A stretch of 64,000 bases of DNA from Phycisphaerae bacterium (GCA_050115495.1 JASFQK010000013.1:1-64000), one strand, 5' to 3'. Positions 23,783-56,610 are shown, counted from the first letter of the stretch. Notes: generated by a model from the letters alone, not told the origin. A program made the numbers and translations.

Positions 23783-23857
<75 letters not shown>

Positions 23858-36295: not shown

Positions 36296-37048
36296 CTACC
36301 GACGGCGAATCAGCAGCCCCGCCATGCCGAGCAGCAGGAGGCTGCCCGGTTCGGGCGTCACGCCGATGGCAAATGAGAGCATGTTGTACGTCGCCGTCGA
36401 GAACGAGTACCAGCCCGGGCCGTTCGGGAACACGGTGGAGTCCGTGCCACTCCAGTACCATTCGTCGCGGTCGCTGGAGCCGATGTTCGGGGGATAGCGG
36501 GTCAGCGCGCCGACTCCGACCGCATTCCCCTCGTAGGCCGTGATCTGCTCGGTCACGAAGAGGTGGTCGTGGCCCGTGAGGTCGATCGTGAAGGCCTGGT
36601 CGATGTCGCTTAACGTGACGCGAGCGGTGTGGCCGCCCAAAACCGCCCCCGTGGTCGCCAGGCTGAAGCCGCCAATGTAGTCGCGGTTGTTGTAATCGTA
36701 GAAGTTGATATCGAAGGTGCAGTTGGCGATGACCTGGTTAAACATGGGGGAGGGGTTGCAGACGAAGAAGCTGAACGAGCGCAGCACACCCGTCCCTTCG
36801 GTCCGCACTTCGTCGCCCCAAAGGGACGTCACATCGTACGAGTTGACCGAGGCCACAGGCACGCCGTCGTCGCCGGTCATATTGTTGTTGTCGTAGATCC
36901 ACACGGGGTCGGCGCGCGTCCCATCGCCGGCGGCGAGCGACACATTCCACTCGTCCACGTTGTCGTACGACGGCGACAAGACGTCGCCGAACGCGAGCGC
37001 CGGCAGCATCAGTGCGGCGACTGCCAGAATCCCAGTGATCCTTCTCAT
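36296..37048 (-). CDS. PEP-CTERM sorting-domain exported protein (paralog 1)
   Basis: Signal peptide; C-terminal TPEPGSLLLLGMAGLLIRRR; GAGGAG RBS. Confidence 0.9.
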   Translation of the reverse strand: MRRITGILAVAALMLPALAFGDVLSPSYDNVDEWNVSLAAGDGTRADPVWIYDNNNMTGDDGVPVASVNSYDVTSLWGDEVRTEGTGVLRSFSFFVCNPSPMFNQVIANCTFDINFYDYNNRDYIGGFSLATTGAVLGGHTARVTLSDIDQAFTIDLTGHDHLFVTEQITAYEGNAVGVGALTRYPPNIGSSDRDEWYWSGTDSTVFPNGPGWYSFSTATYNMLSFAIGVTPEPGSLLLLGMAGLLIRRR

Positions 37049-37189
37049 CTTCGTCCTCCTCTACTCCTTAGAAGACGTGCGCACGGGTCAAAGTGCAGGA
37101 ACGCTCTGCATTCGGCTCTGAACCACTGCCTCGCACGTACCTACCTACTCGGCGCGCGGCCGACGGCCGCACTGCGCGAACCGAATCTC

Positions 37190-37218
37190 AGCATAGCAGC
37201 GGGCGCATTACTTGTCAA
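37190..37218 (-). promoter_or_regulatory. Sigma70-type promoter for PEP-CTERM paralog 1
   Basis: TTGACA-N17-TATGCT on the minus strand. Confidence 0.75.
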
Positions 37219-37272
37219 TATAATTCTCATTGAGCGTTGAAAGAGCATTTGCTTCTGCCTTGTTGAGAGTCT

Positions 37273-37338
37273 CGCAGGGAAAAGGGGACATTCAACGTTT
37301 TTGCTGAAGACAAAGTAGGATGTCCTCATTTCTTTGCG
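37273..37338. repeat. Imperfect inverted repeat (REP/MITE-like) at the duplication junction
   Basis: CGCAGGGAAAAGGGGACATTCAAC ... GTAGGATGTCCTCATTTCTTTGCG. Confidence 0.65.
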
Positions 37339-38614
37339 GTGTCGTCCATCCACAGGCCCGCGATGCGCGGCGCTGCGTGCAGCAGCGTGCCGACGCAAAC
37401 CGCCACGAGCGCGAGTATCGCCAGCGCGGTCCAAGCCGGCCGCGGGGCGGGCTAGGGGGTGATGTTACCTGGCGTGCTCGACAATGCGGGAGTCCACGTC
37501 GCGTCGCCCAGACTGGCCGCCGCCGGGGATCACGCGGGTATCATAGCGGCGCGGCCGCGGGCCAACAGGAAACCCCGGCGGCCTTGCGGCCGCCGGGGGT
37601 GTGTGGGCAAAGCGCACAGTAAGGCGATGAAACTACCGACGGCGAATCAGCAGACCCGCCATGCCGAGCAGCAGGAGGCTGCCCGGCTCGGGCGTCACGC
37701 CGATGGCAAACCCGAGCATGTTGTACGTTGCCGTCGAGAACGAGTACCAGCCCGGGCCGTCCGGGAACACGGTGGAGTCCGTGCCACTCCAGTACCACTC
37801 GTCCCGGTCGCTGGAGCCGATGTTCGGGGGATAGAAGGTCAGCGCGGCGACTCCGGCCGGATTATTCCCCTCGTAGGACGTGATCTGCCAAGTCACGAAG
37901 AGGTGATCGTGGGACGTGAGGTCGACCGTGAAGGTCTGGTCGATGTCGCTGATCGTGGCGCGACCGGCTTGGCCGCCCAAAATCGCCCACCCGGTCTCCT
38001 GGCTGAAGCCGCCAATGTAGTCACGGCTGTCGTAATCGTAGAAGTTAATTTCGAAGGTCGGGTTGGCGATGACTTGGTTGAGTTGGGGGGAGGGGTTGCC
38101 GATGTGGAAGCTGAACGAGCGCAGCACACCCGTCCCTTCGGTCCACACTTCGTCGCCCCAAAGGGACTTCACGTCGTACGACGCAATCGTACCCATCCAC
38201 GAGCCGCTGCTGCCGCAGGAATTGTTGTTGTCGTAGATCCACGCGGGCTCGGCGCGCGTCCCGCCGCCGGAAGCGGCCGACACATTCCACTCTTCGAACG
38301 TGTCGAGGTCGTACGACAGCGTCGCGACGTCGCCGAACGCGAGCGCCGGCAGCATCAGTGCGGCGACTGCCAGAATCCCAGTGATCCTTCTCATCTTCAT
38401 CCTCCTCTACTCCTTAGAAGACGTGCGCACGGGTCAAAGTGCAGGAACGCTCTGCATTCGGCTCTGAACCACTGCCTTGCACGTCCCTACCTACTCGGCA
38501 CGCGGCCGACGGCCGCGCCGCACAAGCCGAATTTCAGCATAGCAGCGTGCGCATTGCTCGTCAAGATAATTCTCATTGAGCTTTGAAAGATCATTTACTC
38601 TTGCTTTGTTGAGC
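37339..38614. repeat. Tandem segmental duplication, copy 2
   Basis: Matches 36006-37268. Confidence 0.9.
37633..38400 (-). CDS. PEP-CTERM sorting-domain exported protein (paralog 2)
   Basis: Signal peptide and TPEPGSLLLLGMAGLLIRRR tail identical to paralog 1. Confidence 0.9.
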   Translation of the reverse strand: MKMRRITGILAVAALMLPALAFGDVATLSYDLDTFEEWNVSAASGGGTRAEPAWIYDNNNSCGSSGSWMGTIASYDVKSLWGDEVWTEGTGVLRSFSFHIGNPSPQLNQVIANPTFEINFYDYDSRDYIGGFSQETGWAILGGQAGRATISDIDQTFTVDLTSHDHLFVTWQITSYEGNNPAGVAALTFYPPNIGSSDRDEWYWSGTDSTVFPDGPGWYSFSTATYNMLGFAIGVTPEPGSLLLLGMAGLLIRRR

Positions 38615-38628
38615 GCCCCGGTTATATT
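38536..38628. promoter_or_regulatory. Back-to-back divergent promoters with candidate operator (module 1)
   Basis: Minus strand TTGACG(38564-38559)-N17-TATGCT(38541-38536). Plus strand TTGCTT(38601)-N16-TATATT(38623-38628), then 7 nt to ATG 38636. Imperfect palindrome TGAGCTTT-G-AAAGATCA at 38577-38593. Confidence 0.7.
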
Positions 38629-38635
38629 GGAATGG

Positions 38636-39877
38636 ATGCGTCGATTTGTAGACAGGCCGAGTTTGGCGGTTGGTGCGTCGCCAAGCATCGAAAAAACGAT
38701 TAGTCTCGTCGGCAAGAGGCTCACGGGGGCTATTCGCGCGGTGCTTGACGCCATCCCCGGCTACCCGTGCGGTCCACAGGAGTTGGCACGCACCCTCGGC
38801 ATCAACAAAGACCTATCCGGGCGTGCGCTGAATGCGTCTGATAAAAAAGACCCTCTTGCCGCCTTGCATCAGATGCCCGGACCAGCACCGCTTCGACAGC
38901 TCCTGAACGCCGCTCTGCGGAAAGGGGTCGCCAAGAGACTGATCGATGAGGCGGCGGAGGCGGTGCGACAATTCGATCTGCTGATTCGGCAACAGGCTGG
39001 CGACCGCGTGTCGCTCGATGGCATTATCAGCACATGGCTACCCGGCGCCCGCGAAAGATTCGAGATGTTCAACAAACAAGCCGTCCACCGCGGGATGGGG
39101 CAACTCAAGGGGGTGATGGCCGACGTGACGATCCAGACCGCGCTGCTGTACCCAGCGGCCGATGGCGAGCGTGTGGACGGCGTCTGGATTGCCGGCTCTG
39201 TGGGATTGCGGCGGATTCGCCCGACGGTGGTCGTGCATTACTGCTCGCATCGCCTGGCGCCGGACGCCCCTCGGGATTGCCCGCTCACCCTTGACGGCGA
39301 GCCGGTGGTTGGGCTTCGCGGACTGCTGCTTGAAGAATTCTGCTCATCCCCTCTTCCGGTCTTCGACGCGCGTCACCAAGGCACTGCTGTGCATTACACC
39401 TTGGCTGGCGACGCGGTGGGACCGGCTTCCGCGGTCGACCTGCTCTTTGCCGAATTGACGCTTGGCTGCATGCCGCGTTATCGGGATGCTGGCCAACTGA
39501 AGAAACACGGAGCATCGGCCGAAATCACGACCCCCACCAAGACGCTCATCTTTGACGCGTTCCTACACGAGCAGGTATATCCGGGATTGCAGCCCGAACT
39601 CGTGCTCTACGACACGGCGGTCAACGGCCTCGCCGACTTGAATGACCCGACCAGAGATATCGACCGCCTCGATGTGAACGAGACCGTCGAATCGCTGGGC
39701 TGGGGCGCGGCGATGTTTCGCGTCCCGGAGGTTGGCGACTACGTCGAAATCCTCCGTCACATTTTCGGCAGGATCGGCCGGGACGATCGTGAGTTCCGCG
39801 GCTACCGTTGTAAGGTGCAGTACCCTATCTATGGTTCGCAGCTCTGCATGGCTTTCACACCACCAGAAAAACCCTGA
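38636..39877 (+). CDS. Uncharacterised putative transcriptional regulator (N-terminal HTH-like), paralog of 52535-53797
   Basis: GPQELARTLGINKDLSGR HTH-like segment; alignable by eye with 52535-53797 at both ends. Confidence 0.75.
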   Translation: MRRFVDRPSLAVGASPSIEKTISLVGKRLTGAIRAVLDAIPGYPCGPQELARTLGINKDLSGRALNASDKKDPLAALHQMPGPAPLRQLLNAALRKGVAKRLIDEAAEAVRQFDLLIRQQAGDRVSLDGIISTWLPGARERFEMFNKQAVHRGMGQLKGVMADVTIQTALLYPAADGERVDGVWIAGSVGLRRIRPTVVVHYCSHRLAPDAPRDCPLTLDGEPVVGLRGLLLEEFCSSPLPVFDARHQGTAVHYTLAGDAVGPASAVDLLFAELTLGCMPRYRDAGQLKKHGASAEITTPTKTLIFDAFLHEQVYPGLQPELVLYDTAVNGLADLNDPTRDIDRLDVNETVESLGWGAAMFRVPEVGDYVEILRHIFGRIGRDDREFRGYRCKVQYPIYGSQLCMAFTPPEKP

Positions 39878-40077
39878 ACTCGACTCTCGCCTGTATTGCG
39901 TGAACCGATCGCCGCTCAACTACGCTGTGCCCCGCAAGCTGATGGGCACTCACCGCGCCTTTGTGCTTTGGGTGACTCCACGCTCACGAAATGGCTGTTC
40001 AGCGCGCCAGCAAACGCGGCGGGTGGAGCGAGGTCGTACCCGCCGCGTTGTGTTGCTGGTGATGTGATGGGCGGGCG

Positions 40078-41358
40078 TCAGGCCCGCATCGCGCCTCCGC
40101 CAATTCGGTCGAGCGGGAAGGGCGGTGAGGCCAGGGCCCGCACGGCCAGGGACATGAGCACCGCCTCGTTGTCGTCGCCGGCGATGCGGTTGGTCCGCAC
40201 GGCGCCGCACTGCTCGCAGCGGTGCACCAGGGTCCAATCGCCGCCGGGACGGGCCCAGATGGCGATGGGTTCCATCGCGCCGCCGCAACCGGCCGCCCGA
40301 TCGCCGGGACGAACGTCGAGGTGGACGCTCCAGAGGCATAGCGGGCAGTGATTGCGCTGCCGCGTGCCCTGGGCGTCGTAGGGGACGGGGGCGCCGCAGC
40401 GGACGCAGGCGAAGCCGCTGCCCGCGGGGGCTTCGGACGCCAAACGCTCTCCCGCGTCGCCGCCACGCCGCCGGTCATCACCCTTCGCCGCGAGCCGCAA
40501 GTAGCTCTGATATCGGCGGGGGTCGATGGTGCCGTCGGCGACGGCTGCCTTCACGGCACACCCTTTCTCGTGCGTGTGCGTGCAGTCGGCGCGGAAGCGG
40601 CAGCGGTCGAGCAGGGGGCGCATCTCGACGAAGCCGGCGGCGATGTCCCGCGCCGCCGACTCGGCGAGGCCGAACTCGCGAATGCCCGGCGTGTCGATGA
40701 GGAGGCCGCCTTCCGGCCAGGCGGTGGCGACGACCTCCGTCGTCGTGTGCCGGCCCTTGTGCGTGCGGCCGCTGATCGTCTGCGTACGCCGGGCGGTCTC
40801 GCCCGTCAGCAGGTTGGCCAGGGTGGTTTTGCCGACGCCGGACTTGCCGACGAGGACGCACGTTCGGCCGGCGAGCTGCGTTCGCAAGGCTGCGACGCTG
40901 TCGGGGTCATCCATGGCAACCAGTGCGACCGGATAGTCCAGACGCTCATAGAGTGCCGCATCACGGCGAATGGCAGCAGCAGCGGGCAGATCGGCCTTCG
41001 TCAGGCAGATCAGTGCCGGGATACCTTCCGCCTCGGCGGTGACGAGGTAACGGTCGACCAATGGCCATTTCGGCTTCGGGTCGGCGACGGCCGTCACGAT
41101 CACGAGGCGGTCGACGTTCGCCGCCAGGACCTGCTCGCCCGGCCGCGGGCCGGCGGCGCGGCGGCGCAGGGCGTTACGCCGTTGCTGTATTGCCTGCACG
41201 ACGCCGGTGTCGTCGGCGACGGCGGACAAAGCAACGAGATCGCCGACGACAGGCTGCTGCTCGGCGTGGCGCAGGCTGCCGGCCGGCGTGCAACGCAGCA
41301 CGGTGCCGGCGGCCGTGACGTCCAGATGTTCGCGCAGGCGTCGAACGACGACGCCCAT
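40078..41358 (-). CDS. rsgA: RsgA-family GTPase fused to a C-terminal RNHCP domain
   Basis: VVGD, AANVD, TKAD, GKSGVGKTT, GRHTT, DTPGIR, CRFRADCTHTHEKGCAV; then FACVRCG...QRNHCPLCLWSVHLDVRPGDRAAGCGGAMEP. ATG 41358 assumed (TGATG overlap with upstream ORF). Confidence 0.88.
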   Translation of the reverse strand: MGVVVRRLREHLDVTAAGTVLRCTPAGSLRHAEQQPVVGDLVALSAVADDTGVVQAIQQRRNALRRRAAGPRPGEQVLAANVDRLVIVTAVADPKPKWPLVDRYLVTAEAEGIPALICLTKADLPAAAAIRRDAALYERLDYPVALVAMDDPDSVAALRTQLAGRTCVLVGKSGVGKTTLANLLTGETARRTQTISGRTHKGRHTTTEVVATAWPEGGLLIDTPGIREFGLAESAARDIAAGFVEMRPLLDRCRFRADCTHTHEKGCAVKAAVADGTIDPRRYQSYLRLAAKGDDRRRGGDAGERLASEAPAGSGFACVRCGAPVPYDAQGTRQRNHCPLCLWSVHLDVRPGDRAAGCGGAMEPIAIWARPGGDWTLVHRCEQCGAVRTNRIAGDDNEAVLMSLAVRALASPPFPLDRIGGGAMRA

Positions 41359-41756
41359 CAACGTATCGGAAGGCGACGGCCGCCCGGCCGCCGCGGTAAC
41401 TTCATCAAAACCCACGGGAATACTCCGTAATGGCAATTCGTGCCGTTTCGGTCTCGATCGTTCAGACAGATCACAAAGCGCAGGCCACGAGCCACACGGG
41501 TCACTTTGGTTGACATCCAGTACTCCTGTTTTCGGGGGCTATGGCGCGGCGTTCGCCGCACCGGTTGGGACAAACCGCCGCCGGCGCGTCAAAACGCCGC
41601 GCCGCGGCAACGAGATCCGATAACGTTGTGATCAGGGGGATCAGTGCGCACAGCCACGGAGGGCAATGGAACGACGCGCGCGAGACAACTCAGCGCTGTC
41701 TGGGGCGGTCGTGCGGCCGTGCGAGTGTCTTAGGCAATGGTCAACATCAGTCAGTT

Positions 41757-45022: not shown

Positions 45023-46054
45023 CTACCGCCGCACTTGCCTGACGGCCAGCCCGAGGCTCGTGGTCAGCAGGAGGAGCGAGCCGGGCTCCGGTACGCGGGC
45101 GACGCGGAAGCCGGAGTCCATCGAGTCGTGCGTCGGCCTGCCGTAGTCGAACCGGCAGCCGGCGTTCATGAAGTCGTTGATCACGTCGATGTAGGATCCG
45201 CCGCGCAGGCCGCGAACCGTGCCCTGGGTGCCGGTAAACACGGCCTCGTTCCATTCCCACACGTTGCCGCCCTGGTCGAACGTCCCGTAGCAACCCCCGG
45301 ACAGCGAGAAGAAACCGACTTCCGTCCGCCAGTAGGGGGCCCCGATGGTGTGATCGCCGTCGTAGTAGTTGGCCGTATTGCCTGTGTCGCCTTCCGGGTT
45401 CCCGTTGTTCGGCGTCGTGTCCGAGCCGGTGGGGTAGTTGTAGTAGTGGCCCGTCACGCCGTCGTTGTAGTGATAGGCGGCCTTGTACCACTCATCCTCG
45501 GACGGGATGGCCCACGTCGCGTTCGGCTTGCGCACGACGGCCAGCAGGGCGGCCCGCGTCACCGCCCCGTTCAGGAAGTACGAGCCGTCCTCGGTTGTCG
45601 TCAGGTCCTGAACGCCGCTCGGCTGGCCGTTGTGCAGCCAGTTTACGAAACGGGCCGCGTCGCCCCAGTTGGTGTAGTTAACCGGGCGATTGGCCCACTC
45701 CGCGGCGACCGAGTACGTGAAGCTGCCCGACGAGCCGCTGCGCTGAATCCGGCAGCCGAACGAGTCGCTGAACATGGCGGTGTTGTACAGACCGTACGTG
45801 TCCGTGCGGGCCACGGCGTTGAGAAACTCCGTGTACTGCCCGGCGGTGACCTCGTACTTGCCGATGGCGTAGACGTAATCTACCGCGCCGCAGACGCGGT
45901 CGGGACCGTAGCCGCCCGGTGCGCTGGCCCCGGAGATCTCGCCGACGTTGCCGGGATTACCGATCGTCACGGTTTGGATGTCCACCGCGTGCGCGACGGA
46001 GGCGATGACCAATAGCACGGCGACCTGCGCTACGAACTTCCTTACTCCGCTCAT
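45023..46054 (-). CDS. FGE-sulfatase (SUMF1-like) domain exported protein with PEP-CTERM tail
   Basis: IGKYEVTAGQY, RPVNY, PSEDEWYKAAY, GTFDQGGNVWEW, RGGSY, GFRVARVPEP. Confidence 0.9.
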   Translation of the reverse strand: MSGVRKFVAQVAVLLVIASVAHAVDIQTVTIGNPGNVGEISGASAPGGYGPDRVCGAVDYVYAIGKYEVTAGQYTEFLNAVARTDTYGLYNTAMFSDSFGCRIQRSGSSGSFTYSVAAEWANRPVNYTNWGDAARFVNWLHNGQPSGVQDLTTTEDGSYFLNGAVTRAALLAVVRKPNATWAIPSEDEWYKAAYHYNDGVTGHYYNYPTGSDTTPNNGNPEGDTGNTANYYDGDHTIGAPYWRTEVGFFSLSGGCYGTFDQGGNVWEWNEAVFTGTQGTVRGLRGGSYIDVINDFMNAGCRFDYGRPTHDSMDSGFRVARVPEPGSLLLLTTSLGLAVRQVRR

Positions 46055-46239: not shown

Positions 46240-49128
46240 TCACTGAGCCTCGCCGGGTAGGCGGTCGCGCCACTCGGTGGCGTCGGCGGGTTTGCCCCAG
46301 GTCTCATAAAAAGCGGCGATGCGGCGGATGGCGCGCAGTGTCGTGTCACTGGTCTTGCCGTGACGGGCCTGGATGGCAGGCAGTGCGTCCAGGAACATGC
46401 GCTCCGCCTCGTCGAAGCGCTCCTGGGCGAGCAGGTACTCGCCGCGAAGGCTCATGAGACAGCCGGGGCAGGGGCCTTTCTGTCCGTCAGCCTGTTGCCG
46501 CTCGGCGATGTCGATGGCCTGCTGGAATAACGCCGCCGCTTCGGGCGCGTGCCCTTGCTGCTGCCGACAACGGGCCAGGGCGACCGTGGGTCCGATCAAC
46601 TGCACGTCGCTGTCGCCGTACGCCTGTCGGTGGGCGGCGAGCACCTGGCGGATCATCTCTTCCTGTTCGCCCATCCGCCCCTGCTGCCAGAGCACGTTGA
46701 GCAGCAGGTACATGCACTCCAGCGAATCCTCGTGCAGGTCGCCCAGTTCGCGGCGCAGGACGGGGAGGGCCTCGTGCAGCAGTTTTTCCGCTTCGGCGGT
46801 CTTGCCCAGCGTCGCCAGCGGCCTGGCCAAGCCCGCCATGCACCGGCACGTGTAGCGATGGTTCCTGCCGTGCAGACGCTCCAGCCCGGCCAGCGCGTCG
46901 CGGTAGATCTGCTCCGCGTCGGACCAGTGACCTTCGGCGGCGAGCGCCCACGCCACGTTCTCCATCGACTCCAGCGTTTCCGGATGATCGCGTCCCAGCA
47001 GGCGTCGCCGGACTTCGACAGCCTTCGTGATCAGCGGCATGGCTTCGGCCGTTCGCTGCTCGTGGAGGTGCAGGACGCCCAGAATGTGCATCGACTCCGC
47101 CGTGTAGACGCTTTCTTCGCCGTACACGCGCATGCTCGTGCGCAGCGCCTCCTCGCTGAGCGCGCGGGCCTCGTCCAGGTGGTCGAGGCGTTGCAGCAGC
47201 CAGGACAGCGCGTTCAGCGCCACCAGCGTCTTGGGATGCTCGTCGCCGTAGAGCCGGCGGAAGCTATCGAGTGCCTGTCGGCAGTATGGCTCCGCGGCCT
47301 GCCAGCGCCCGCCGGATTGCAGCGTCCACGCCAGATAGGCCATCGCGTTGACCGTGTGGGCGTGGTCCGGACCGAGGGCTTGCTGGCCGAGCGACATGGC
47401 CTCGCGCAGCAGCGGCTCCGCCTCCGACAGCTTGCTGTCGTACATCAGGGCTTTGCCCAGGCTGTTCATGGAGGCGATCGTGTCGGCGTGCGCGTCCCCG
47501 AGCGTTGCGCGACGCAGATCGACCGCGGTCGCCAGGAGTGGCTGCGCCTTGCCGAAGAGGCCCAGGTTTGTGTAGACGCGGCCGACGATGTCCAGGAGCC
47601 GGGCCTGGATCTCGGGCTGTTCCTTCAGGTTGCGCTGGATGTTCTCGGCGGCGGCGTCCAGCATCTCGCGCGCTGTTCCGCCGGAGCCGTCCGTTTGCAG
47701 GGGATCCGCCGCTTCGAGCAGGGCGGTGAGGATCTGGGCGACCTCGGCTGCGGTCTGCGCCTCTGCCTGGGCGAGCCGCTCCGCTTTCTGAGCGCGGACG
47801 GTGTTGGCCTCGGCGGTTTGGCGTTCGTGCTGGGCGTGGGCGCGGAGCACGTCCGCCTGAGCGTACAAGACGCTCATCCAGATGCCGAAAGCCAGCAGGA
47901 TGCCCAGCACCACCGCGGCCGAGGCGAACGCCGCCTTGTGGCGTTTCGCCAGCTTGCGTAGTTGATATGTCAGTCCGGGCGGACCGGCCGTCACGGGCTC
48001 GTCGCGCAGGTATCGTTGGACGTCCTCGGATAAGGCCACGGCGGCGTCGTACCGCCGATCGCGGTCCTTCTCCAGCGCCTTCATGACGATCCAGTCCAGG
48101 TCGCCGCGCAGCGTCCTGGCCAGACTGCCGGGTTCGATCCGCCGGGCGCGGGCTACGCGGGCGAGCGTGTCGCCGAGGCCACCGACGCGACGCGACGGCG
48201 TCGGCGGTTCGCGCTCGCGCACGACGCGCTGCATCTCGGCGTACGACGTGTCGCGCAGCGCCTGCGTGTCGAAGGGCGTGACGCCGGCCAGTAGCTCGTA
48301 CAGCAGCACGCCGAGCGAGTAGATGTCACTGCGCGTGTCGACGTCCAGTTCGCCCATGCTCACCTGTTCGGGGCTGACGTACTCCGGCGTGCCCACGAAT
48401 TGGCGGAAACCTGTTTGCAGGGTCTTTTCGGTCAGCGATTCGTGCATCGCCTTGGCGATGCCGAAGTCGATCACCTTGGGCGCGGGCACGCCGTCGCGTA
48501 GCGTGACCAGGACGTTGGACGGCTTGATGTCGCGGTGGATGACGCCCTTCTGGTGGGCGTGGTGCACCGCTTGGCACACTTGGACGAAGAGCGCCGCCCG
48601 CTCGCGAATGGTCGCCCAGTGCTCGTCGCAGTATTCGGTGATCGGAGCGCCGCGGACCAGCTCCATCACGAAGTAGGGCCGGCCGCCTTCCGTCGCGCCG
48701 GCGTCGAGCACGCTGGCGATGTGGGGATGCTCCATCATCGCCAGGGCCTGCCGCTCGGCTTCGAAGCGGGCGATGACCTGCCGGGTGTCCATGCCCAGCT
48801 TCACGATTTTCAGGGCGACCGTTCGCCGGACGGGCCGCTCCTGCTGCGCCATGTAGACTGCCCCGAAGCCGCCCTCACCCAGCAGCTCGAGCAGCTTGTA
48901 CGGGCCGATCGACTGGCCGATCAGCTCGTTGTCGCTGCGGTCCAGCTCTTCGACCGCGTGGAGCGAGGCGATCGTGTGGCTGTCCAGGTGGGCCAGCAGC
49001 GAGTCGACCTCCGCCCGGACGTCCGACTCATCGCAGGCGGCGTCGAGGAAGGCCGGACGCTCGTCGGGCGGCAGAACGGCCGCCTCGTGAAAGAGCTCCT
49101 CTACCTTTCTCTGGAGTGCCGCGTTCAT
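46240..49128 (-). CDS. Membrane Ser/Thr protein kinase with C-terminal TPR repeats
   Basis: LGEGGFGAVY, VALK, HRDIKPSN, DFGIAK, GTPEYVSPE; TM segment; kinesin-light-chain-like TPRs (LGxDHPxT). Confidence 0.93.
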   Translation of the reverse strand: MNAALQRKVEELFHEAAVLPPDERPAFLDAACDESDVRAEVDSLLAHLDSHTIASLHAVEELDRSDNELIGQSIGPYKLLELLGEGGFGAVYMAQQERPVRRTVALKIVKLGMDTRQVIARFEAERQALAMMEHPHIASVLDAGATEGGRPYFVMELVRGAPITEYCDEHWATIRERAALFVQVCQAVHHAHQKGVIHRDIKPSNVLVTLRDGVPAPKVIDFGIAKAMHESLTEKTLQTGFRQFVGTPEYVSPEQVSMGELDVDTRSDIYSLGVLLYELLAGVTPFDTQALRDTSYAEMQRVVREREPPTPSRRVGGLGDTLARVARARRIEPGSLARTLRGDLDWIVMKALEKDRDRRYDAAVALSEDVQRYLRDEPVTAGPPGLTYQLRKLAKRHKAAFASAAVVLGILLAFGIWMSVLYAQADVLRAHAQHERQTAEANTVRAQKAERLAQAEAQTAAEVAQILTALLEAADPLQTDGSGGTAREMLDAAAENIQRNLKEQPEIQARLLDIVGRVYTNLGLFGKAQPLLATAVDLRRATLGDAHADTIASMNSLGKALMYDSKLSEAEPLLREAMSLGQQALGPDHAHTVNAMAYLAWTLQSGGRWQAAEPYCRQALDSFRRLYGDEHPKTLVALNALSWLLQRLDHLDEARALSEEALRTSMRVYGEESVYTAESMHILGVLHLHEQRTAEAMPLITKAVEVRRRLLGRDHPETLESMENVAWALAAEGHWSDAEQIYRDALAGLERLHGRNHRYTCRCMAGLARPLATLGKTAEAEKLLHEALPVLRRELGDLHEDSLECMYLLLNVLWQQGRMGEQEEMIRQVLAAHRQAYGDSDVQLIGPTVALARCRQQQGHAPEAAALFQQAIDIAERQQADGQKGPCPGCLMSLRGEYLLAQERFDEAERMFLDALPAIQARHGKTSDTTLRAIRRIAAFYETWGKPADATEWRDRLPGEAQ

Positions 49129-49253
49129 GTGCGTGCCTCGGAATCGTTGCTTCGGCCGAGCCACCACCCAATTCGAAATCGGCGGCTCATTTCGCTCACG
49201 GTGCTGGCGTCTGAATCCGTCGGTCCGGCGAAGCGGCAGTACGCCGCGCGTGT

Positions 49254-49847
49254 TCAGGCCGAGTCGCCTCCGGCGAGTTCGCGCTCCAGCCAGGTGCGGA
49301 TGAACCGCCACTCGCGTCCCACCGTCGCCACCGAGATGCCGAGCGCCTCCGCGGTCTCCGCCGTCGTCATCCGGGCGAAGTAGCGCAGGTTGATGATTTG
49401 CCCTTTGCGCGGGTCCTCGCGTTCGAGTCGGCGAATCGCCTCGTCGATGGCCAGGACCTCGCGCGAAGGTGCGTCGGCCGCCGGCTCGTTCAGCTCGTTG
49501 TCGAGGCGTCGCAGGCCGCCGCCCTCCTTCAGAGAGGACTTGTGCCGCGCCTGCTCCACGAGGATGTGCCGCATCGCCCGGGCGGCGGCGGCGAAGAAAT
49601 GGGCACGATCGCCCCAGCCCGGGTCCTCGCGACCCACGAGACGCATGTAAGCCTCGTGAACCAGGGCCGTGGCCTGTAGCGTCTGGCCCGGCGGGAGCTT
49701 CCGCAGCCGCGCCTGGGCCAGTTGTCTCAACTCATCGTACACGAGTGGCAGCAGGTCCCGCGCGGCTTCGCGACCGCCGGCGAAGTCGCGGAGAATCTGT
49801 GTGACTGGATTGGTATCGTTGTCTGGCAAGTGCTGCCGCCGGTGCAT
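49254..49847 (-). CDS. ECF sigma factor, TIGR02999 type
   Basis: LLPLVYDELRQLA, TLQATALVHEAYMRL, HFFAAAARAMRHIL, LRYFA...ATVGREW; directly upstream of the Ser/Thr kinase. Confidence 0.92.
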   Translation of the reverse strand: MHRRQHLPDNDTNPVTQILRDFAGGREAARDLLPLVYDELRQLAQARLRKLPPGQTLQATALVHEAYMRLVGREDPGWGDRAHFFAAAARAMRHILVEQARHKSSLKEGGGLRRLDNELNEPAADAPSREVLAIDEAIRRLEREDPRKGQIINLRYFARMTTAETAEALGISVATVGREWRFIRTWLERELAGGDSA

Positions 49848-50080: not shown

Positions 50081-51001
50081 TCAAGGATCGCAGGCGAATC
50101 GGAACGCGTCGTCCAGGTCGGGCGGCAATACCAGCGTCTGAAAAGAACGATCGCGCGCGTCCTCGCAGAGGGCGGCGCGCCGTACGGCGTTATTCACGAA
50201 CTCAGCCGCGTACTCGGCGTTGAAGACCGGCTTCCCGGCGTCGATGAACGGTTGCAGGGCGTCGCATTCGTCGTACTCGTGGCACTGTTCGTTCACGCAG
50301 AAGTCGAAATACGCGACCAGCTCCGGAACCTGGTCGACGTCATTCTTGAGGCCGACACTGAGCCCGCGGGCGTGCGCCTCGTTGGCCAGGAAGCGGTTGA
50401 AGTCGAGCTGGTCTGCCGGTGTCAGAGCAAAGCCGCTGTCGTTGTCATAGGCATCGACATTGTCGGGCTCGACGCCGTCGCAACCGCGCTGCACCGCCAG
50501 ATCGAGCCTCGCCTGCATGATCCGCCGGACGTTCGCGGAGCGGATGTCGAGCCAGCGCTCGTCCACGTAGTCCTCGAGCGTGTTACCCAGCTCTGCCGCC
50601 AGGAACTCGTCGGCGTCCGGGCGGAAGTCCTCGAACGTGCCGGCGGAGAAGTAGCAGATCACCCGGCGACCCTGGGCGTGCAGCTCTTCGATGGGTTCCG
50701 GGGACGAATCGAACAGGTCGATGTCGTACACGTCGACGTCGTAAGTCGTGTTGATCCGGCCGTCGGCGTCAGTCTGGAGCTGCCACTGCCACGTCGTGTC
50801 CACGCCGGGCTGATACCATTCGCCCTGTGCGGGCGGCGGCGTGTTCGTATCGCCGGAGGAATCCCCCGCGCCATCGTCCGGCCCGTCGGCTGCCGGCGGG
50901 CAGCCAAACAACACACTGGCCAAACCAACCAGCACGAGCAGCAGCACGCTGCGTGCGTTGGGCAAACCTCTGTTCTGAGGATTTCGTGAGAGCATCGGCA
51001 T
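50081..51001 (-). CDS. Endo-alpha-1,4-polygalactosaminidase (GH114) lipoprotein
   Basis: Lipobox LFGC; WQWQL, DIDLFD, ICYFSAG, CDGVEPDN, GLKND, NEQC, FNAEY. Start uncertain. Confidence 0.88.
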   Translation of the reverse strand: MPMLSRNPQNRGLPNARSVLLLVLVGLASVLFGCPPAADGPDDGAGDSSGDTNTPPPAQGEWYQPGVDTTWQWQLQTDADGRINTTYDVDVYDIDLFDSSPEPIEELHAQGRRVICYFSAGTFEDFRPDADEFLAAELGNTLEDYVDERWLDIRSANVRRIMQARLDLAVQRGCDGVEPDNVDAYDNDSGFALTPADQLDFNRFLANEAHARGLSVGLKNDVDQVPELVAYFDFCVNEQCHEYDECDALQPFIDAGKPVFNAEYAAEFVNNAVRRAALCEDARDRSFQTLVLPPDLDDAFRFACDP

Positions 51002-51179
51002 GAGACCAGCGATTCTGACAGCTCTGCCTGCTATTCTACGCATCCCCCGCAGGCAGAACGAGCACGCATTCGCGCGGTCAACGGACCGTCCCCGTGCCGG
51101 GGTGTGCTGCTGGACGGCGGCCCGGAAGACGCTACGCTGAGGTTTGCTGGATACTTCAGTTATCCGGGAGCGTGCAGCC

Positions 51180-51656
51180 ATGATCGACTTCAAACCGGAT
51201 ACCAGTGCTCCGCCGCCGGGCTTGAGGACGTTGGCGCAGCTCGAAGAGGATCTCGGGCTCATGCTGCCGGAGGAGTACGTCGCGCTGCTCCGGCAATCGA
51301 ACGGCGGCGTGCCCGTGTGTGGCTGTTTTGAGTGCGACGGGCAGGAGCGATTGGTCGAGCGGTTCCTGTGCATACTGGATACGCCGGAAGAGGACGAGGC
51401 GCACGGCCCGTATGACGTGAGCGTGGTCTGGTCGCAGGTCGGCGAGCGACTCGTGGACGATCCCGCCCTGGTCGGCACGAACGTGTTGCCCATCGCCGCG
51501 TTGTCCGCGGGCGACCTCGTCTGCCTGGACTTCCGCGAAGATCCTGCCACGCCGGCGGTGGTCGTCTGGGATCACGAACAGAGCGCGGAGCTGCATCCGC
51601 GCCTCGTGCGCGTGGCGGATTCGCTGCTGGATTTCCTGCGGATGCTGCGTCCTTGA
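51180..51656 (+). CDS. SMI1/KNR4 (SUKH) family protein
   Basis: LEEDLGLMLPEEYVALLRQSNGG; PIAALSAGDLVCLDFR; VVVWDHE; VADSLLDFL. Confidence 0.85.
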   Translation: MIDFKPDTSAPPPGLRTLAQLEEDLGLMLPEEYVALLRQSNGGVPVCGCFECDGQERLVERFLCILDTPEEDEAHGPYDVSVVWSQVGERLVDDPALVGTNVLPIAALSAGDLVCLDFREDPATPAVVVWDHEQSAELHPRLVRVADSLLDFLRMLRP

Positions 51657-51703
51657 ACCGCTTCGATCGCGAGTAGGTTCAGGATGCTCCCGAGGAGCGG
51701 CGT

Positions 51704-52468
51704 ATGACCGACGTTCAGATTATCGACACGGACGCCGCGACCGTCGGCGAGCACGCGTTCTGCGGCTTCAAGGATCCCAGGAGCGAAGGGCACAAGCGAA
51801 AGACCGCCTGGCTGAAGCAGCGCTTCACCGAGGGATTGAGATTCAAGGTGTTGCAGGTCGACGGCGTCGACGCCGGCATGATCGAGTACGCTCCCGGCGA
51901 GCACACCTGGCGGCCGATCGAGGCGGTGGGCTACCTGGTCATCCACTGCATCATGATCAACCGGAAGGAGTACAAGGGGCACGGCTACGGCCTGCGGCTC
52001 GTGGAAGAGTGCGTGAGCGACGCCCGGCGGGCCGGCAAGCACGGCGTTGCGGTCGTGACCAGCAGGGGCACGTGGATGGCGAGTCCGGAGGTCTTTCTGC
52101 GCAACGGCTTCAAGTGCGTGGACACCGCGCCGCCCTCGTTCGAGCTGCTGGCCAGGAAGTTGCGCAAGGCGCCGTCGCCGACGTTCCGGACGGGGTGGGA
52201 GGACACGCTGCGACAGTGCGGCTCGGGGCTCACGATCATCACGTCTGACCAGTGTCCGTGCATCGCCAAGGCGATCGGCGATATTCGGCAGGCCTGCCGG
52301 ACGCTACGGATTCGCCCGAAGGTCGTGGAGCTGACGACAGGTGAAGAGGCCCGCGCCGCACCGTCGGCCTACGGCATCTTCAACGTGATCTACAAGGGCC
52401 GCGTCGTGGCCGACCATCCGATCAGCAGCACGCGCTTCCTGAACATCATGCGGGGACTGCGGAAGTAG
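51704..52468 (+). CDS. GNAT-family protein with C-terminal YoaP-like domain
   Basis: KTAWLKQRFTEGL, IEYAPGE, IHCIMI..YKGHGYG, SDQCP, ARAAPS. Confidence 0.8.
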   Translation: MTDVQIIDTDAATVGEHAFCGFKDPRSEGHKRKTAWLKQRFTEGLRFKVLQVDGVDAGMIEYAPGEHTWRPIEAVGYLVIHCIMINRKEYKGHGYGLRLVEECVSDARRAGKHGVAVVTSRGTWMASPEVFLRNGFKCVDTAPPSFELLARKLRKAPSPTFRTGWEDTLRQCGSGLTIITSDQCPCIAKAIGDIRQACRTLRIRPKVVELTTGEEARAAPSAYGIFNVIYKGRVVADHPISSTRFLNIMRGLRK

Positions 52469-52534: not shown

Positions 52535-53797
52535 TCACTCGCTGGGTTGATCGTCGCCGGGCAGACGTCCATCTGCATCTGTTGGGGCCGGTCGCAGGCG
52601 ATTGCTCATGCGCACTTCGCTCTGGATGATCGGGTATTCCATGCGGAAGCGGTAGACGTCGAAGCGTTGCGGCTCCCAGCCCAGACGCTCGAACACATAG
52701 GACACCATGTCCGCGTAGCGCGGCACCTCGGGCGTGTGCAGCGCATCAGTCGCCTTGCCCATGTACTGCACGGTGTCCGTAAGCGGCAGGCGAATGGAGG
52801 AGTTGTACGGTCCGGAGGCGAAGTTGCTGTAGATGACGAGCTCCGGCTCCAGACGCCCATACAGTTCTTCGTGGACGAACTGGTCGAAGATGAGCAGCTC
52901 AGACGCGGTACCCACCTGGGCCACGTAGCTCGCGCTGCTGTCTGTCTCACAGCAGTAATAGGAACCGCCGCGCCGAACGATCTCGCCCGTGATGCACGTG
53001 ACGGCTCCGGTCTTGCCGGCGCGACCCGGCGACAGCGTCCACTGCAATGACTCTGCCACGTGGCTGTATTCGAGCTTCGGACGCGGTTGACTCATGAAGA
53101 GCTTCGCCGCCACATCGTCCGGGTTTTCCACGTCGTACAGCGGCTCGAACGGGGCATCGGACGGCACAACCCCCGAGTCGGTGCGGCAGCGGGCCAGACC
53201 GAGCGGCCAACGCACGTCGGGCCGGAGACGTTGCACGCCGACGAGTCCCCGCATTGCGGCGTGATCCACCCGCCCGGGGGTCTTCGAGAAGTTGACGAAC
53301 GAGGCTCGCAACTGCGCCTCGGCCGACACGCCCCAGATGTAGCTGTTCGCCTCGTACGCGAGCCGGCGGTGGGCCAGGTCCATCTCCGCGCGACCCTCGT
53401 CTGAGTGGGCGGCCAGCATCCGGTCGAGCCGTCTGCGACTGCCGGCGTGGATGCGGACCAGGTTGTCATAGTCGGCGAGGGCGGCGGCCGCCGTCTCGGT
53501 AAGGGCCACGGGAACGCCTTGCTTCTTCGCGGCCCGCAGGAAGATCCGCACGCCGCCGGTACCGGGGATGTAGCGGGCGGCGTCGAACGGGTTGGGGTAG
53601 CGGATGACGTTGAAGATTCGCCAACTGAGCCCCTTATCGATCTTAAGCGTGTGCTGGAGCTCGGACGCCCGCGTAATGGACTGGGGCAGGGCCGCGATAA
53701 TCTCGGTGAATGTCCGCCGAATGCGTCCGACGGCGTCGACCGTGTGCTCATCGAACGGCGGGGGTGAGTCCTTCTTCTCGGGGGTCTCCGTCTTCAT
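52535..53797 (-). CDS. Uncharacterised putative transcriptional regulator (N-terminal HTH-like), paralog of 38636-39877
   Basis: RASELQHTLKIDKGLSWRI HTH-like segment; shared C-terminal PEV..Y.....F.R.G.....F..YR....YPI motif. Confidence 0.75.
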   Translation of the reverse strand: MKTETPEKKDSPPPFDEHTVDAVGRIRRTFTEIIAALPQSITRASELQHTLKIDKGLSWRIFNVIRYPNPFDAARYIPGTGGVRIFLRAAKKQGVPVALTETAAAALADYDNLVRIHAGSRRRLDRMLAAHSDEGRAEMDLAHRRLAYEANSYIWGVSAEAQLRASFVNFSKTPGRVDHAAMRGLVGVQRLRPDVRWPLGLARCRTDSGVVPSDAPFEPLYDVENPDDVAAKLFMSQPRPKLEYSHVAESLQWTLSPGRAGKTGAVTCITGEIVRRGGSYYCCETDSSASYVAQVGTASELLIFDQFVHEELYGRLEPELVIYSNFASGPYNSSIRLPLTDTVQYMGKATDALHTPEVPRYADMVSYVFERLGWEPQRFDVYRFRMEYPIIQSEVRMSNRLRPAPTDADGRLPGDDQPSE

Positions 53798-53804
53798 GGT
53801 TGCG

Positions 53805-53881
53805 ACTCTAATCGGTTCTGAGGGAAATATCAAGTGAAGTTTTTAAAAACTATTGACAAGCACTTCCCCAAAAACTATCGT
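53805..53881. promoter_or_regulatory. Back-to-back divergent promoters with perfect palindromic operator candidate (module 2)
   Basis: Minus strand TTGATA(53833-53828)-N17-TAGAGT(53810-53805), then 7 nt to ATG 53797. Plus strand TTGACA(53853)-N17-TATCGT(53876). Perfect palindrome AGTTTTTAAAAACT at 53838-53851. Confidence 0.75.
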
Positions 53882-54286
53882 GAACCTGACGTCGATGGCC
53901 ATGAGCAACGCTTTCGGCCGTTGACTGCTGCGATCGAGAGGAGTTGTCCGTGTTGTGTTTGCCTGCGAGCACGCCCGTTTTCCGCCGCTCGAACCGGTTC
54001 ACTGTCGCCGGCGAGAGCAGTCCGGCGGCGCGGACGACGGGTGGGTGCCTGGCGCGATGCAGCAACGCCGGGCCGCGGCAGGCATGCCTGGCAACCGGGG
54101 ACAGACCGAACGGAGACGTCATGGTGTGAGGTTGGTTCCGGGGGGCGAGGGGAGTGAGGAGAAGGAAGCGGATTACCCGGCATCAACAGGAATCAGCGGA
54201 GTGTAGGGAGGCGCCGTCTGCAAGCGGTTTGCAGTAGTCCACAAACGAAGAGGTAGGTTGTTACTTCGGTAGGAGGAGACGTTTCA

Positions 54287-55414
54287 ATGACTTCGAACCT
54301 TCAGAGAATCAGTTGCGTGTTGACGACCGTCGCGGTGCTGACGTTCACCGGTGCGGCATTCGGCGGTTGGACGTTCATCGACCTTGGTAGCCTCGACGGA
54401 CGGGGGTGCCTCGGTGTCGACGTGAACAACGCCGGCCAGGTGACCGGCTACTCCACGTACGAAGGGGGAGGGGACTTCGACTATCACCCGTTCATCTGGG
54501 AGAACGGCAGCATGATCGATCTCGGCACGATCGGTGATGCGTACCTGGCGCAGCCCACGGCCATCAGTGAGGCCGGGCAGGTAGCGGGTTGGTCCAAGAT
54601 CCAGCCTTACCCGGATAACCACGCGTTTTTCTGGGAAAACGGAACCATGACCGATCTGGGAACGTTGGGCGGCAGCCAGACCTGGGGCGAGGGCGTCAAC
54701 AGCGCCGGCCATGTGGTCGGGTACCAGAGCACGCCGGGTTGTGCCTTCCTGTGGGATGGGACGACGATGCAGGACCTGAACAGCTCGTCCAACCCCGACT
54801 GGCAGCTCACGGGCGCCCTCGACATCAATGATTCGGAGCAAATCGTAGGCCAGGGCAACATCGATGGTTCCACCAGGGCCTTTCTGTACGACGCCGGCGT
54901 GATCACCAATCTGGGCGTCCTGGGCACTGGGGATAACAGCTCGGCGAACGCCATTTCCGAGTCCGGAATCATCGTGGGCCGCTCGACGAACGGGGAGACG
55001 TACCGGCCGGGGCCGGGGCCCATGACGCGTCCGGTCAACCATGGTTTCCTGTGGCAGGACGGCGTCATGACCGACCTGGGTACGCTCGGCGGGATTCTGA
55101 GCGAGGCGTTCGACGTGAACGCATCCGGCCAGGTGGTCGGCAAGGCGAACTACACTGAGGGAGACTTCCACCACCACCACGCCTTTCTGTGGGACGACGG
55201 CGTCATGATCGACCTCAATGACCTGCTCCCGGCCGGCAGCGAATGGGAACTGAGGGAGGCCACGGGCATCAACGATCTCGGGTACATCGTTGGGTGGGGG
55301 ATGGTGAACGGGGTGGAGCGTGGGTTCATCCTCGTTCCCGAGCCCAGCACGCTGACCTGTCTGCTCGGCCTGGGCGCACTCCTGTTCGCTCGCGGACGGC
55401 GGAACGCGTCCTAG
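54287..55414 (+). CDS. HAF-repeat exported protein with PEP-CTERM tail
   Basis: AGGAGG RBS; signal peptide; repeats HAFxW..G.MTDLGTLGG..A..IN..GQVVG; VPEP-TM-RR tail. Confidence 0.9.
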   Translation: MTSNLQRISCVLTTVAVLTFTGAAFGGWTFIDLGSLDGRGCLGVDVNNAGQVTGYSTYEGGGDFDYHPFIWENGSMIDLGTIGDAYLAQPTAISEAGQVAGWSKIQPYPDNHAFFWENGTMTDLGTLGGSQTWGEGVNSAGHVVGYQSTPGCAFLWDGTTMQDLNSSSNPDWQLTGALDINDSEQIVGQGNIDGSTRAFLYDAGVITNLGVLGTGDNSSANAISESGIIVGRSTNGETYRPGPGPMTRPVNHGFLWQDGVMTDLGTLGGILSEAFDVNASGQVVGKANYTEGDFHHHHAFLWDDGVMIDLNDLLPAGSEWELREATGINDLGYIVGWGMVNGVERGFILVPEPSTLTCLLGLGALLFARGRRNAS

Positions 55415-55479
55415 CCGCTTTGGATCTGGAGTGGGGATGTTGTGACCCTGATACCCTCTCGCCGTGATGACGGCGAAGG

Positions 55480-56544
55480 ATGGAGAAAACGATGCGATCT
55501 CTGAGTCTTCTGGCAGCGATCATGATGGCGCTGAGCGCGCCGGCGCTCGCTTCGGTGTCCTATACCATCACCGACCTGGGTACGCTGACGTCGGTCCCGT
55601 ACAGCAATGCACGCACCTTGAACGAGAACGGGCAAGTCGGTGGCTACTCGGCGGGGGCCGACCACTACTCGCGGGCCTTTTTCTGGGAAGACGGCGTGAT
55701 GACCGATCTGGGACTCTTCTCGGCCCAGGCTTCGTTCGCCTGGGACATGAACAGCTCCGGTCAGATGGCTATCAGGACAGTCGGCCCGGACTCCGCCTGG
55801 GTGTGGGACAACGGTAGCGTCACTTACATCTCGCCGCTGCCGGGCGGATCGTCCAATGAAGCGTACGGTATCAACGATGCCGGCCAGGTCGCGGGTCGAT
55901 CGGCGACGAGCGTTGGCCAGCGGGCGTTCCTGTGGGACGACGGCTCCTTGTGGAGCCTCGGTACCCTCGGCGGGAACTACAGTTCCGCCCATGACATCAA
56001 TAACGCCGGCCAGGTGGCTGGTACGTCTGCCAACGCGAGCGGAGTATGGCATGCCTTCCTTTGGGACGACGGCGTGATGACCGACCTGGGTACGCTCGGC
56101 GGCCCAAGTAGCGCCGGGATCGCCATGAACGACGCCGGCCACGTCGTGGGCCGGTCGTGGCTGCCCGAAGGTGGACCCTACCGGGCGTTCCTGTACCGGG
56201 ACGGAGCGATGGCCAACCTGGGCTCGCTCGGCGGAGAGTTCGCCGATGCCCTGGGAATCAACAACCTGGATCAGGTCGTCGGCCACTCCTTGTTGGCCGG
56301 TGGCGCCCAACGCGCCTTCATCTGGGATGACGGCGTGATGACCGACCTGAATGACCTGCTCGTGGACGGCGGCGCGTGGGAACTGACGGAGGCCGCCGAC
56401 ATCAACGATGCGGGCCAGATCGTCGGTGTGGGGTACATCAACGGGGACGAACACGCCTTCCTGCTGACCCCTGTTCCCGAACCGGCGACGCTCAGCCTGC
56501 TGAGCCTCGGCGCCCTGGCGCTGCTCCGCCGGCGACGCGCCTGA
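55480..56544 (+). CDS. HAF-repeat exported protein with PEP-CTERM tail
   Basis: Signal peptide; HAF repeats; PVPEPATLSLLSLGALALLRRRR. Confidence 0.9.
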   Translation: MEKTMRSLSLLAAIMMALSAPALASVSYTITDLGTLTSVPYSNARTLNENGQVGGYSAGADHYSRAFFWEDGVMTDLGLFSAQASFAWDMNSSGQMAIRTVGPDSAWVWDNGSVTYISPLPGGSSNEAYGINDAGQVAGRSATSVGQRAFLWDDGSLWSLGTLGGNYSSAHDINNAGQVAGTSANASGVWHAFLWDDGVMTDLGTLGGPSSAGIAMNDAGHVVGRSWLPEGGPYRAFLYRDGAMANLGSLGGEFADALGINNLDQVVGHSLLAGGAQRAFIWDDGVMTDLNDLLVDGGAWELTEAADINDAGQIVGVGYINGDEHAFLLTPVPEPATLSLLSLGALALLRRRRA

Positions 56545-56574
56545 TTCTTGAACGCGTGTTTGTGACCTCCTCAA

Positions 56575-56610
56575 CGAAAGGCCCTTCGGCGAAAGCCGGA
56601 GGGCCTTTCG
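56575..56610 (+). terminator. Long hairpin terminator
   Basis: CGAAAGGCCCTTCGGC-GAAA-GCCGGAGGGCCTTTCG directly after the HAF/PEP-CTERM pair. Confidence 0.75.

Follow-up and report, generated by a model that had tools for sequence, protein, structure and literature searches.

The 64,000-nt stretch of DNA analyzed here, from a Phycisphaerae bacterium (GCA_050115495.1 JASFQK010000013.1:1-64000; hereafter the window), contains two loci, A and B, at which a gene for a putative one-component regulator lies back-to-back with a pair of genes for predicted surface proteins bearing a PEP-CTERM tail. We call the two putative regulators A and B and the genes facing them cargo. The features of the two loci are listed below, with promoters written as -35 element, spacer length in nucleotides and -10 element; SD denotes the Shine-Dalgarno sequence and HTH a helix-turn-helix.

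Locus A
36237..36262, minus strand: intrinsic terminator-like hairpin (duplicate)
36296..37048, minus strand: PEP-CTERM protein, 250 aa, recent duplicate of 37633-38400
37190..37218, minus strand: second cargo promoter, TTGACA-17-TATGCT
37219..37250, unstranded: duplicated box array before the second cargo promoter, without an adjoining regulator gene
37573..37598, minus strand: intrinsic terminator-like hairpin
37633..38400, minus strand: PEP-CTERM protein, 255 aa, unknown domain, strong SD
38536..38564, minus strand: cargo promoter, TTGACG-17-TATGCT
38565..38596, unstranded: box array, with proximal box GAGAATTATC abutting the cargo -35 and an imperfect palindrome one turn upstream
38601..38628, plus strand: promoter of A, sigma70-like, weak, TTGCTT-16-TATATT, predicted leaderless
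38636..39877, plus strand: putative regulator A, 413 aa, with helical N-domain, HTH-like motif (aa 47-69), dimer helices (aa 119-158) and beta-sandwich (aa 160-407)
38774..38842, plus strand: predicted HTH coding stretch of A (recognition helix, xKDLSSR clade)

Locus B
52535..53797, minus strand: putative regulator B, 420 aa, paralog of A
53805..53833, minus strand: promoter of B, TTGATA-17-TAGAGT, -10 ending 7 nt before the ATG, predicted leaderless
53838..53851, unstranded: perfect 14-bp palindrome AGTTTTTAAAAACT between the two -35 boxes
53853..53881, plus strand: cargo promoter, TTGACA-17-TATCGT, followed by a leader of ~400 nt
54287..55414, plus strand: HAF-repeat PEP-CTERM protein, 375 aa
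55480..56544, plus strand: HAF-repeat PEP-CTERM protein, 354 aa, 38% identical to the 54287..55414 protein

A and B are distant paralogs (112 of 402 aligned positions identical by BLAST, 28%, E-value 1e-46), and the four pairs of matching motifs that a preliminary description of this DNA had quoted all fall in register in the alignment. Its account of the promoters was likewise borne out. The -10 element of A (TATATT, 38623-38628) and that of B (TAGAGT, 53810-53805) each end 7 nt before the ATG, with no SD-like word at either gene. Each gene is divergent from a TTGAC(A/G) promoter with a 17-nt spacer, TTGACG-17-TATGCT at A and TTGACA-17-TATCGT at B, and a palindrome lies between the two -35 boxes in both cases, perfect at B, where it is 1 and 4 nt from the boxes, and imperfect at A (38576-38596). 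The -35 of A itself (TTGCTT, 16-nt spacer) is weak and was absent from the promoters listed by our consensus scan.

The cargo proteins of A and B show no relationship to each other, as had been noted, and the HAF repeats of the B pair were confirmed. Two of the four PEP-CTERM tails score above the Pfam cut-off and two just under it; one of the latter two, the 37633-38400 protein, is above the TIGR02595 cut-off, so that three of the four exceed a curated cut-off and the fourth falls just below. The A cargo pair is a recent tandem duplication of a whole unit, each copy having its own promoter, boxes and terminator, with 92% column identity. Between the two units (36200-37290 and 37540-38610) the leader is almost identical, and the differences lie in a few N-terminal patches and patches in the middle of the passenger domain. 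Because the likeness begins ~45 nt upstream of the -35, the second copy carries the same boxes without an adjoining regulator; this agrees with the boxes being part of the cargo promoter, and passive carry-over by recent duplication could explain it too. The B pair consists of 38%-identical paralogs behind one detected promoter and is probably co-transcribed. The B leader (53888-54286) folded no better than its shuffles (z -0.01) and had no Rfam match; long upstream regions like it are common among the cargo genes of the family described below. Near-identical contigs of one metatranscriptome span 37624-38484, covering an A cargo gene and part of its leader; regulator A was in no contig of that metatranscriptome, a gap that is uninformative, and such contigs cannot reveal start sites.

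A large family paired with exported-protein genes

A and B had been presented as two independent copies of one switch. Instead, they are two of 57 full-length paralogs, accompanied by one fragment, that a six-frame profile search recovered from this 5.97-Mb genome (92% complete). Some paralogs are clustered, six on C53 (35 kb) and three on each of C29 and C55, with PEP-CTERM and dockerin genes lying among them, an arrangement that suggests local duplication islands. The family outnumbers the TetR, XRE, ArsR-type and PadR hits of the genome combined (57 versus 41), and regulator counts for planctomycete bacteria would therefore miss a major class.

The closest named homologues come from Phycisphaerae metagenome-assembled genomes (78% in L117). 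Within the same taxonomic family, 21 of 24 genomes have homologues, at 1-11 matches each; in a sample of 401 genomes from the phylum at least 32 do, a lower bound given that four candidates per genome were scored. Clustering at 50% identity gave 3,197 representatives, 1,991 of them at E up to 1e-30. Nearly all loci of a species-genome scan (75 of 79) were of Planctomycetota type, the exceptions being two from uncultured bacteria, one from Actinomycetes and one from Pseudohongiellaceae; the Actinomycetes genome may be mis-binned, because the promoter region of its locus (L119) resembles that of a Phycisphaerales locus (L121). A metagenome scan yielded one short locus only. No match above cut-off was found in Pfam (57 paralogs searched), NCBIfam (nine), PHROGs (eight) or PADLOC (eight), and no account of the family appeared in the open-access literature, a search that left supplements and subscription papers outside its reach; on these grounds the earlier view of an undescribed family stands. 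The ESM Atlas returned 30 matches that share no common Pfam family, with Planctomycetota the commonest taxon. Longer or fused forms were not found among proteins of 777-2215 aa, which is weak evidence against them.

Genomic context ties the family to exported proteins. Among the 56 paralogs having a called upstream gene, 47 are divergent from it, and 39 face a divergent gene with a PEP-CTERM (29) or dockerin (10) tail, compared with 65 of 3925 other genes; nine have a same-strand PEP-CTERM gene downstream. We then considered 140 loci from other genomes, holding 142 family genes matched including the N-terminal region, of which 132 remained after subtraction of four duplicates and six genes lacking an upstream neighbor. 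These homologues are divergent from the upstream gene in 115 cases, and 95 of the 132 face a gene with a tail of PEP-CTERM type (54), of dockerin/EF-hand type (20) or of an unnamed, beta-rich type of ~100 residues (21). The phylum-wide subset alone gave 24 of 41. The non-random pairing with exported genes that had been proposed is thus seen both here and abroad.

The passenger domains of the cargo are diverse (HAF, NHL/SGL, FG-GAP, BNR, FGE-fold and unknown), and cargo families vary within regulator clades. From these varied tails and passengers it follows that the pairing, as predicted from sequence, is with exported proteins of three anchor types and not with PEP-CTERM as such. The link to PEP-CTERM put forward in the preliminary description holds for 29 of 56 paralogs, but dockerin and unnamed tails also partner the family. 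The tandem arrangement of PEP-CTERM genes, present at both window loci, fails as a rule, being found at only 10 of the 29 PEP-partnered loci. Most downstream PEP genes have no strong promoter of their own and are thus probably operon members.

Three observations concern the partner genes themselves. The unnamed tail, which ends roughly in Q-x-W-x-x-D...SNG, was seen in 21 exported proteins of another Planctomycetota lineage, encoded by the divergent genes of L057, L059-L061, L064-L069, L071-L073, L077, L082, L085, L089, L090, L094, L161 and L188. It had no Pfam or NCBIfam match among the proteins scanned, and may replace PEP-CTERM or dockerin as a third anchoring module; the pairing with the family thereby flags an uncatalogued C-terminal anchor-like domain. 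At L164, L168, L172 and L175, homologues are divergent from an IspD-like gene, exceptions to the exported-partner rule that are possibly one orthologous group. Finally, 142 genes of the genome have by pattern a dockerin-like tail (NFDISPF-type ending), for example window 62556-63713; one window example that was scanned gave only a sub-cut-off NCBIfam match to GC-dockerin.

To follow the leaderless signature through the family, we scored TANNNT ending 5-8 nt before an in-frame ATG or GTG. Of the 57 paralogs, 30 carry the signature and ten have an SD-like word instead; of 47 such spacings, 31 are exactly 6-7 nt. The controls gave 204 of 3528 genes, 99 of 1029 divergent genes and 7 of 41 TetR, XRE, ArsR-type and PadR genes; in other genomes, 34 of 138 family genes had the signature. 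A leaderless start is thus predicted to be a strong tendency of the family, not a rule.

A box array phased to the cargo promoter

At 40 of the 47 divergent loci the cargo has a strong sigma70-like promoter, compared with 288 of 1088 control divergent genes. Upstream of it lies an AT-rich array (62%, versus 33% in control promoters) whose proximal edge coincides with the first base of that promoter's -35. Perfect palindromes with 7-bp arms occur at 11 of the 40 loci; shuffles gave a mean of 0.44 and a maximum of three, and such palindromes were present in 22 of 591 control promoters and in none of 16 AT-matched ones.

Across 80 promoters, the unit of the array is a quasi-palindrome of ~10 bp resembling RAAWWTTY, repeated two to three times per array with a period of 10-11 bp. 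Counted from the first T of the -35, box scores peak at -10, -21 and -32, the peak at -32 having played no part in training, and there is no peak in the spacer, at the -10 element or downstream. A matrix built only from other genomes gave the -10/-20/-31 phase in this genome. In leave-one-out scoring, 39 of 40 loci outscored shuffled versions of themselves (mean z 2.0). The best 16 of 783 held-out promoter-like sites precede seven family genes and four PEP-CTERM genes, including the duplicate at 37218. The motif is rare outside family loci.

The array follows the cargo promoter. In 22 divergent loci it is in phase with that promoter and not with the -35 of the regulator; in seven non-divergent loci it is in phase with the latter. 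The distance from regulator ATG to cargo -35 is variable, at 55-109 nt with one case at 194. A single family-wide consensus site spans paralogs that are only ~25-35% identical to each other. Within it, two sister clades differ. In the clade of A, with an xKDLSSR recognition helix, GAGAA/TTCTC boxes accompany 10 of 10 regulators, compared with 11 of 47 others; in its sister clade, with a DKVLASR helix, GAAAC/GTTTC boxes accompany 21 of 23, compared with 4 of 47 others. Box sequence thus likely follows the predicted recognition helix in these two clades.

Predicted fold and comparison with known systems

An AlphaFold2 model of A, built from a 150-row alignment (predicted local distance difference test score, pLDDT, 93.8), comprises eight helices (residues 18-158) followed by a beta-sandwich (160-407). 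Helices 47-54 and 58-69 are joined by a three-residue turn with HTH spacing (pLDDT about 98), and a conserved HTH-type pattern, L50/L54/G55/I56/L60, runs across the paralogs. Residues 18-70 are net positive in 52 of 57 proteins and the C-domain is net negative; position 59 of the recognition helix is among that helix's most variable. A profile search of the PDB placed an IclR HTH (5TJJ) among the top matches on the HTH segment, weakly (E 0.27-0.32), and 5 of 57 paralogs had sub-cut-off matches to named HTH Pfam families on the same segment. The N-domain matched the ChiS DNA-binding domain (Z score 7.1, root-mean-square deviation 2.9, 92 residues aligned) and, with Z 4.9-5.6, the XRE types HigA (2ICT), RodZ (2WUS), BldD (2EWT) and 3F6W. 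For the HTH that had been suggested, then, the geometry and the basic N-terminus agree, but the fold match to a solved DNA-binding domain is weak.

The C-domain model resembles ribophorin I (Z 10.9, root-mean-square deviation 3.4, 181 aligned), BDI_1141 (3KD4; Z 10.5) and the N-terminal domains of M1 aminopeptidases (Z 8-8.8), with 3-9% identity to all of these; this likeness names the predicted fold, not a ligand. Foldseek gave one match at E<=0.001 for the whole model, and GAF, PAS and familiar effector folds were unlisted but not thereby excluded; the ESM Atlas gave no named match to the C-domain. The large sensor domain of the preliminary description is thus matched by a large C-terminal beta-sandwich, but one unlike known ligand-binding domains.

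A homodimer with an interface formed by helices 119-158 and the beta-sandwich was predicted with a score of 0.65 (best control, 0.03). Of 30 solved homodimers, 20 attain the mark used, as does one of 23 single chains, and the runs agreed in at least 91% of contacts with pLDDT of at least 85. There is no clear membrane helix, 19-residue hydropathy never rising above 1.76 and exceeding 1.6 in 5 of 57 proteins. The models predict that family proteins are soluble cytoplasmic dimers.

TetR beside tetA, lambda cI at PRM/PR and the LysR-type proteins are one-component HTH regulators divergent from their targets, often with leaderless mRNA. Family proteins are like them in having an N-terminal HTH-like domain, a large C-domain, a predicted dimer, divergent sigma70 promoters and operator-like DNA between the -35 boxes, and unlike them in having no Pfam match above cut-off, a beta-sandwich C-domain, an array wholly upstream of the -35 and targets that are almost all exported. 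Repressors like lambda cI also carry a C-terminal S24 self-cleavage domain, and no S24 Pfam match was found in the 57 proteins at E 0.1. The analogy to lambda and tetR repressors drawn in the preliminary description is disfavored: the whole array sits upstream of the -35 of the partner gene, and its phase is that of the partner promoter, not of the regulator's own.

PEP-CTERM regulation offers a second comparison. According to Haft et al. (2006; PMC1569441), a sigma54 motif upstream of PEP-CTERM genes is found only in Proteobacteria, PrsK/PrsR/sigma54 forms one global two-component system acting at sigma54 promoters, and further PEP-CTERM regulators and motifs outside that class are left to discover. 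As in that system, the units are single PEP-CTERM genes preceded by long upstream regions, and the genome encodes an exosortase (one over cut-off); the loci studied here differ from it in having many local proteins at sigma70-type promoters. The best PrsK and PrsR scores were 105 against a cut-off of 300 and 394 against 503 bits, in a genome that is 92% complete, and 0 of 39 cargo upstream regions had a sigma54-like -24/-12 site (shuffles, 0.4); the proteobacterial sigma54/PrsK-PrsR link is not supported here.

Among DNA-binding folds, the best match to the N-domain of A is the ChiS domain (PDB 7KPO), described in the consulted part of Klancher et al. (2021; PMC8092284) as a cryptic HTH missed by sequence searches, with a beta-sheet between helices 2 and 3 and a C-terminal position in proteobacterial proteins. 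By contrast with that description, the family N-domain model has no strands, a three-residue turn and an N-terminal position. Over the HTH the family weakly resembles XRE and IclR proteins in structure and profile, respectively, and is unlike them in its longer six-helix N-domain, which runs on into the dimer helices. Membership in XRE/Cro-C1 was rejected (PF01381 above cut-off in 0 of 57, and no family protein among the genome's 26 HTH_3 hits), as was membership in IclR (PF09339 below cut-off in 4 of 57, at 13-14 bits against 22, with no IclR C-domain match). The beta-sandwich (residues about 150-410) resembles the luminal domain of ribophorin I (Ost1), 3KD4 and M1 aminopeptidases, but is fused to an HTH-like domain with no clear membrane helix; the 57 proteins have no Pfam match to ribophorin I or M1 aminopeptidases, and the likeness is limited to this one sandwich. 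What appears new is the predicted regulator family, its domain pairing and its predicted site code; it would work like a one-component regulator beside its target.

Candidate mechanism, rival explanations and remaining window features

We consider it probable that each family protein is a cognate DNA-binding regulator of its neighbor. The fuller proposal, that A and B are dedicated dimeric activators that switch on the neighboring predicted surface-protein gene, we hold in even balance. Two boxes, at about -55 to -36 relative to the start site, would be bound by one dimer, placing it where it could touch sigma region 4 or the alpha subunit; a third box would accommodate another subunit or dimer. 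Leaderless synthesis would keep the regulator at a low level in the case of about half of the paralogs. The recognition helix would set which box variant is read, and duplication followed by divergence would create many semi-private switches. The variable beta-sandwich would gate activity through a cytoplasmic ligand or partner, and where a regulator heads an operon, an array abutting its own -35 would provide positive feedback.

Several findings weigh against a cognate regulator. A family gene lies directly upstream of only 37 of 140 PEP-CTERM genes and of only 10 of 137 genes with a dockerin tail. The family is also absent from three relatives that are 96-97% complete and contain 20-46 PEP-CTERM hits each. 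The pairing counts depend on PEP and dockerin assignments from our own gene caller and tail patterns, and among the foreign genes 74 of 138 came from a scan aimed at the clade of A and so are not independent. In the fold searches, unrelated helical bundles scored as well on the N-domain (Z 7.3 and 6.9), Foldseek gave it no match at E 0.001 or better, and the C-domain showed no likeness to known effector-binding domains in the fold and atlas searches.

If the proteins are cognate regulators, we lean somewhat towards activation: the boxes keep a fixed phase relative to the -35 and leave the core promoter clear. The excerpted text of PMC13494017 gives a class II activator window of -49 to -35 and a class I window of -100 to -50, within which the family boxes fall. 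Repression by the same proteins at the same boxes is a possible but less favored alternative, the nearest to the lambda/tetR picture: dimers would block the alpha subunit and sigma region 4 until released by a ligand of the beta-sandwich, and operon-type loci would be ordinary negative autoregulation. The leaderless divergent layout, typical of cI and TetR, counts for it, as do the strong SD, the terminators and the closeness of the locus B palindrome to both -35 boxes. The cargo promoters are also near consensus (TTGACN in 27 of 40, a 17-nt spacer in 29 of 40), figures biased towards looking strong, given that promoters were chosen by consensus score. According to the same excerpt of PMC13494017, a near-consensus -35 goes with repressed and not with class II-activated promoters, and the steric-repressor window of -60 to +10 covers the family sites too. 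That excerpt also places the strongest repression in the spacer, and across the 80 promoters the box signal is missing from the spacer, the -10 and the region beyond. Moreover, the fixed phase suggests a geometric contact with polymerase, which steric blocking would not need.

An improbable alternative is that the phased A/T array is a general promoter feature, namely an UP element, an intrinsic bend or a site for a shared global factor, with the 57 proteins acting elsewhere or only weakly here. The array does lie in the UP-element zone, with the elevated AT content noted above, and one consensus serves the whole family despite its divergence. Covariation between helix and box gave a partial r of 0.17 over all pairs, the helix window ranking 6th of 198, and vanished among distant pairs (r 0.01, p 0.39), with ancestry as a confounder. 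Private sites shared by a regulator's own and a separate cargo promoter, compared in 15 pairs, fell short of significance (p 0.10), with one clear case. These results weaken the case for a recognition code as well. A general feature would not account for the excess of palindromes over same-composition shuffles and their lack in AT-matched promoters, for the rarity of the motif away from the family or for the change of box sequence between sister clades. That the proteins are instead cytoplasmic chaperones or export or modification adaptors for the neighboring surface protein, and not transcription factors, is very improbable: the best C-domain fold matches (ribophorin I, BDI_1141 and M1 aminopeptidase N-terminal domains) and the weak HTH match would suit it, but those matches are at 3-9% identity, 47 of 56 genes are divergent and not co-transcribed, the cargo is unrelated and changes within regulator clades, and the basic HTH-patterned N-terminus, the leaderless signature and the clade-linked palindromes would be left unexplained.

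Returning to activation, a bolder extension, which we regard as unlikely, is that ~57 near-orthogonal, self-reinforcing activator switches with their own box variants determine which of dozens of surface proteins are displayed by a cell and so generate heritable cell-to-cell surface variation without DNA rearrangement, with the beta-sandwich as a new sensor class that possibly binds peptides released during export or anchoring of surface proteins. More immediately, the family is a candidate for the missing regulator of surface proteins in Planctomycetota; an explanation of PEP-CTERM regulation is not known outside Proteobacteria. The question lends itself to direct testing, since binding sites and a recognition code have been predicted and one host, Fontivita pretiosa (L190), is in culture, and the many paralog/box pairs could serve as orthogonal switches.

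The window holds a fifth PEP-CTERM gene (45023-46054, minus strand), with an FGE-sulfatase fold, that does not adjoin a family gene and has no listed sigma70 promoter. Upstream of it are a Ser/Thr kinase-TPR gene (46240-49311) and an extracytoplasmic function (ECF) sigma gene (49254-49847), neighbors that are a possible second route of surface-protein control. Elsewhere, 40078-41436 (minus strand) encodes an RsgA GTPase fused to a C-terminal RNHCP domain, and the interval between the two loci (50081-52468) encodes a GH114 hydrolase (minus strand) and SUKH/SMI1-KNR4 and GNAT-YoaP proteins (plus strand). An Acido-Lenti-1 RNA match and a tRNA lie at 9806-9851 and 23783-23857, respectively.

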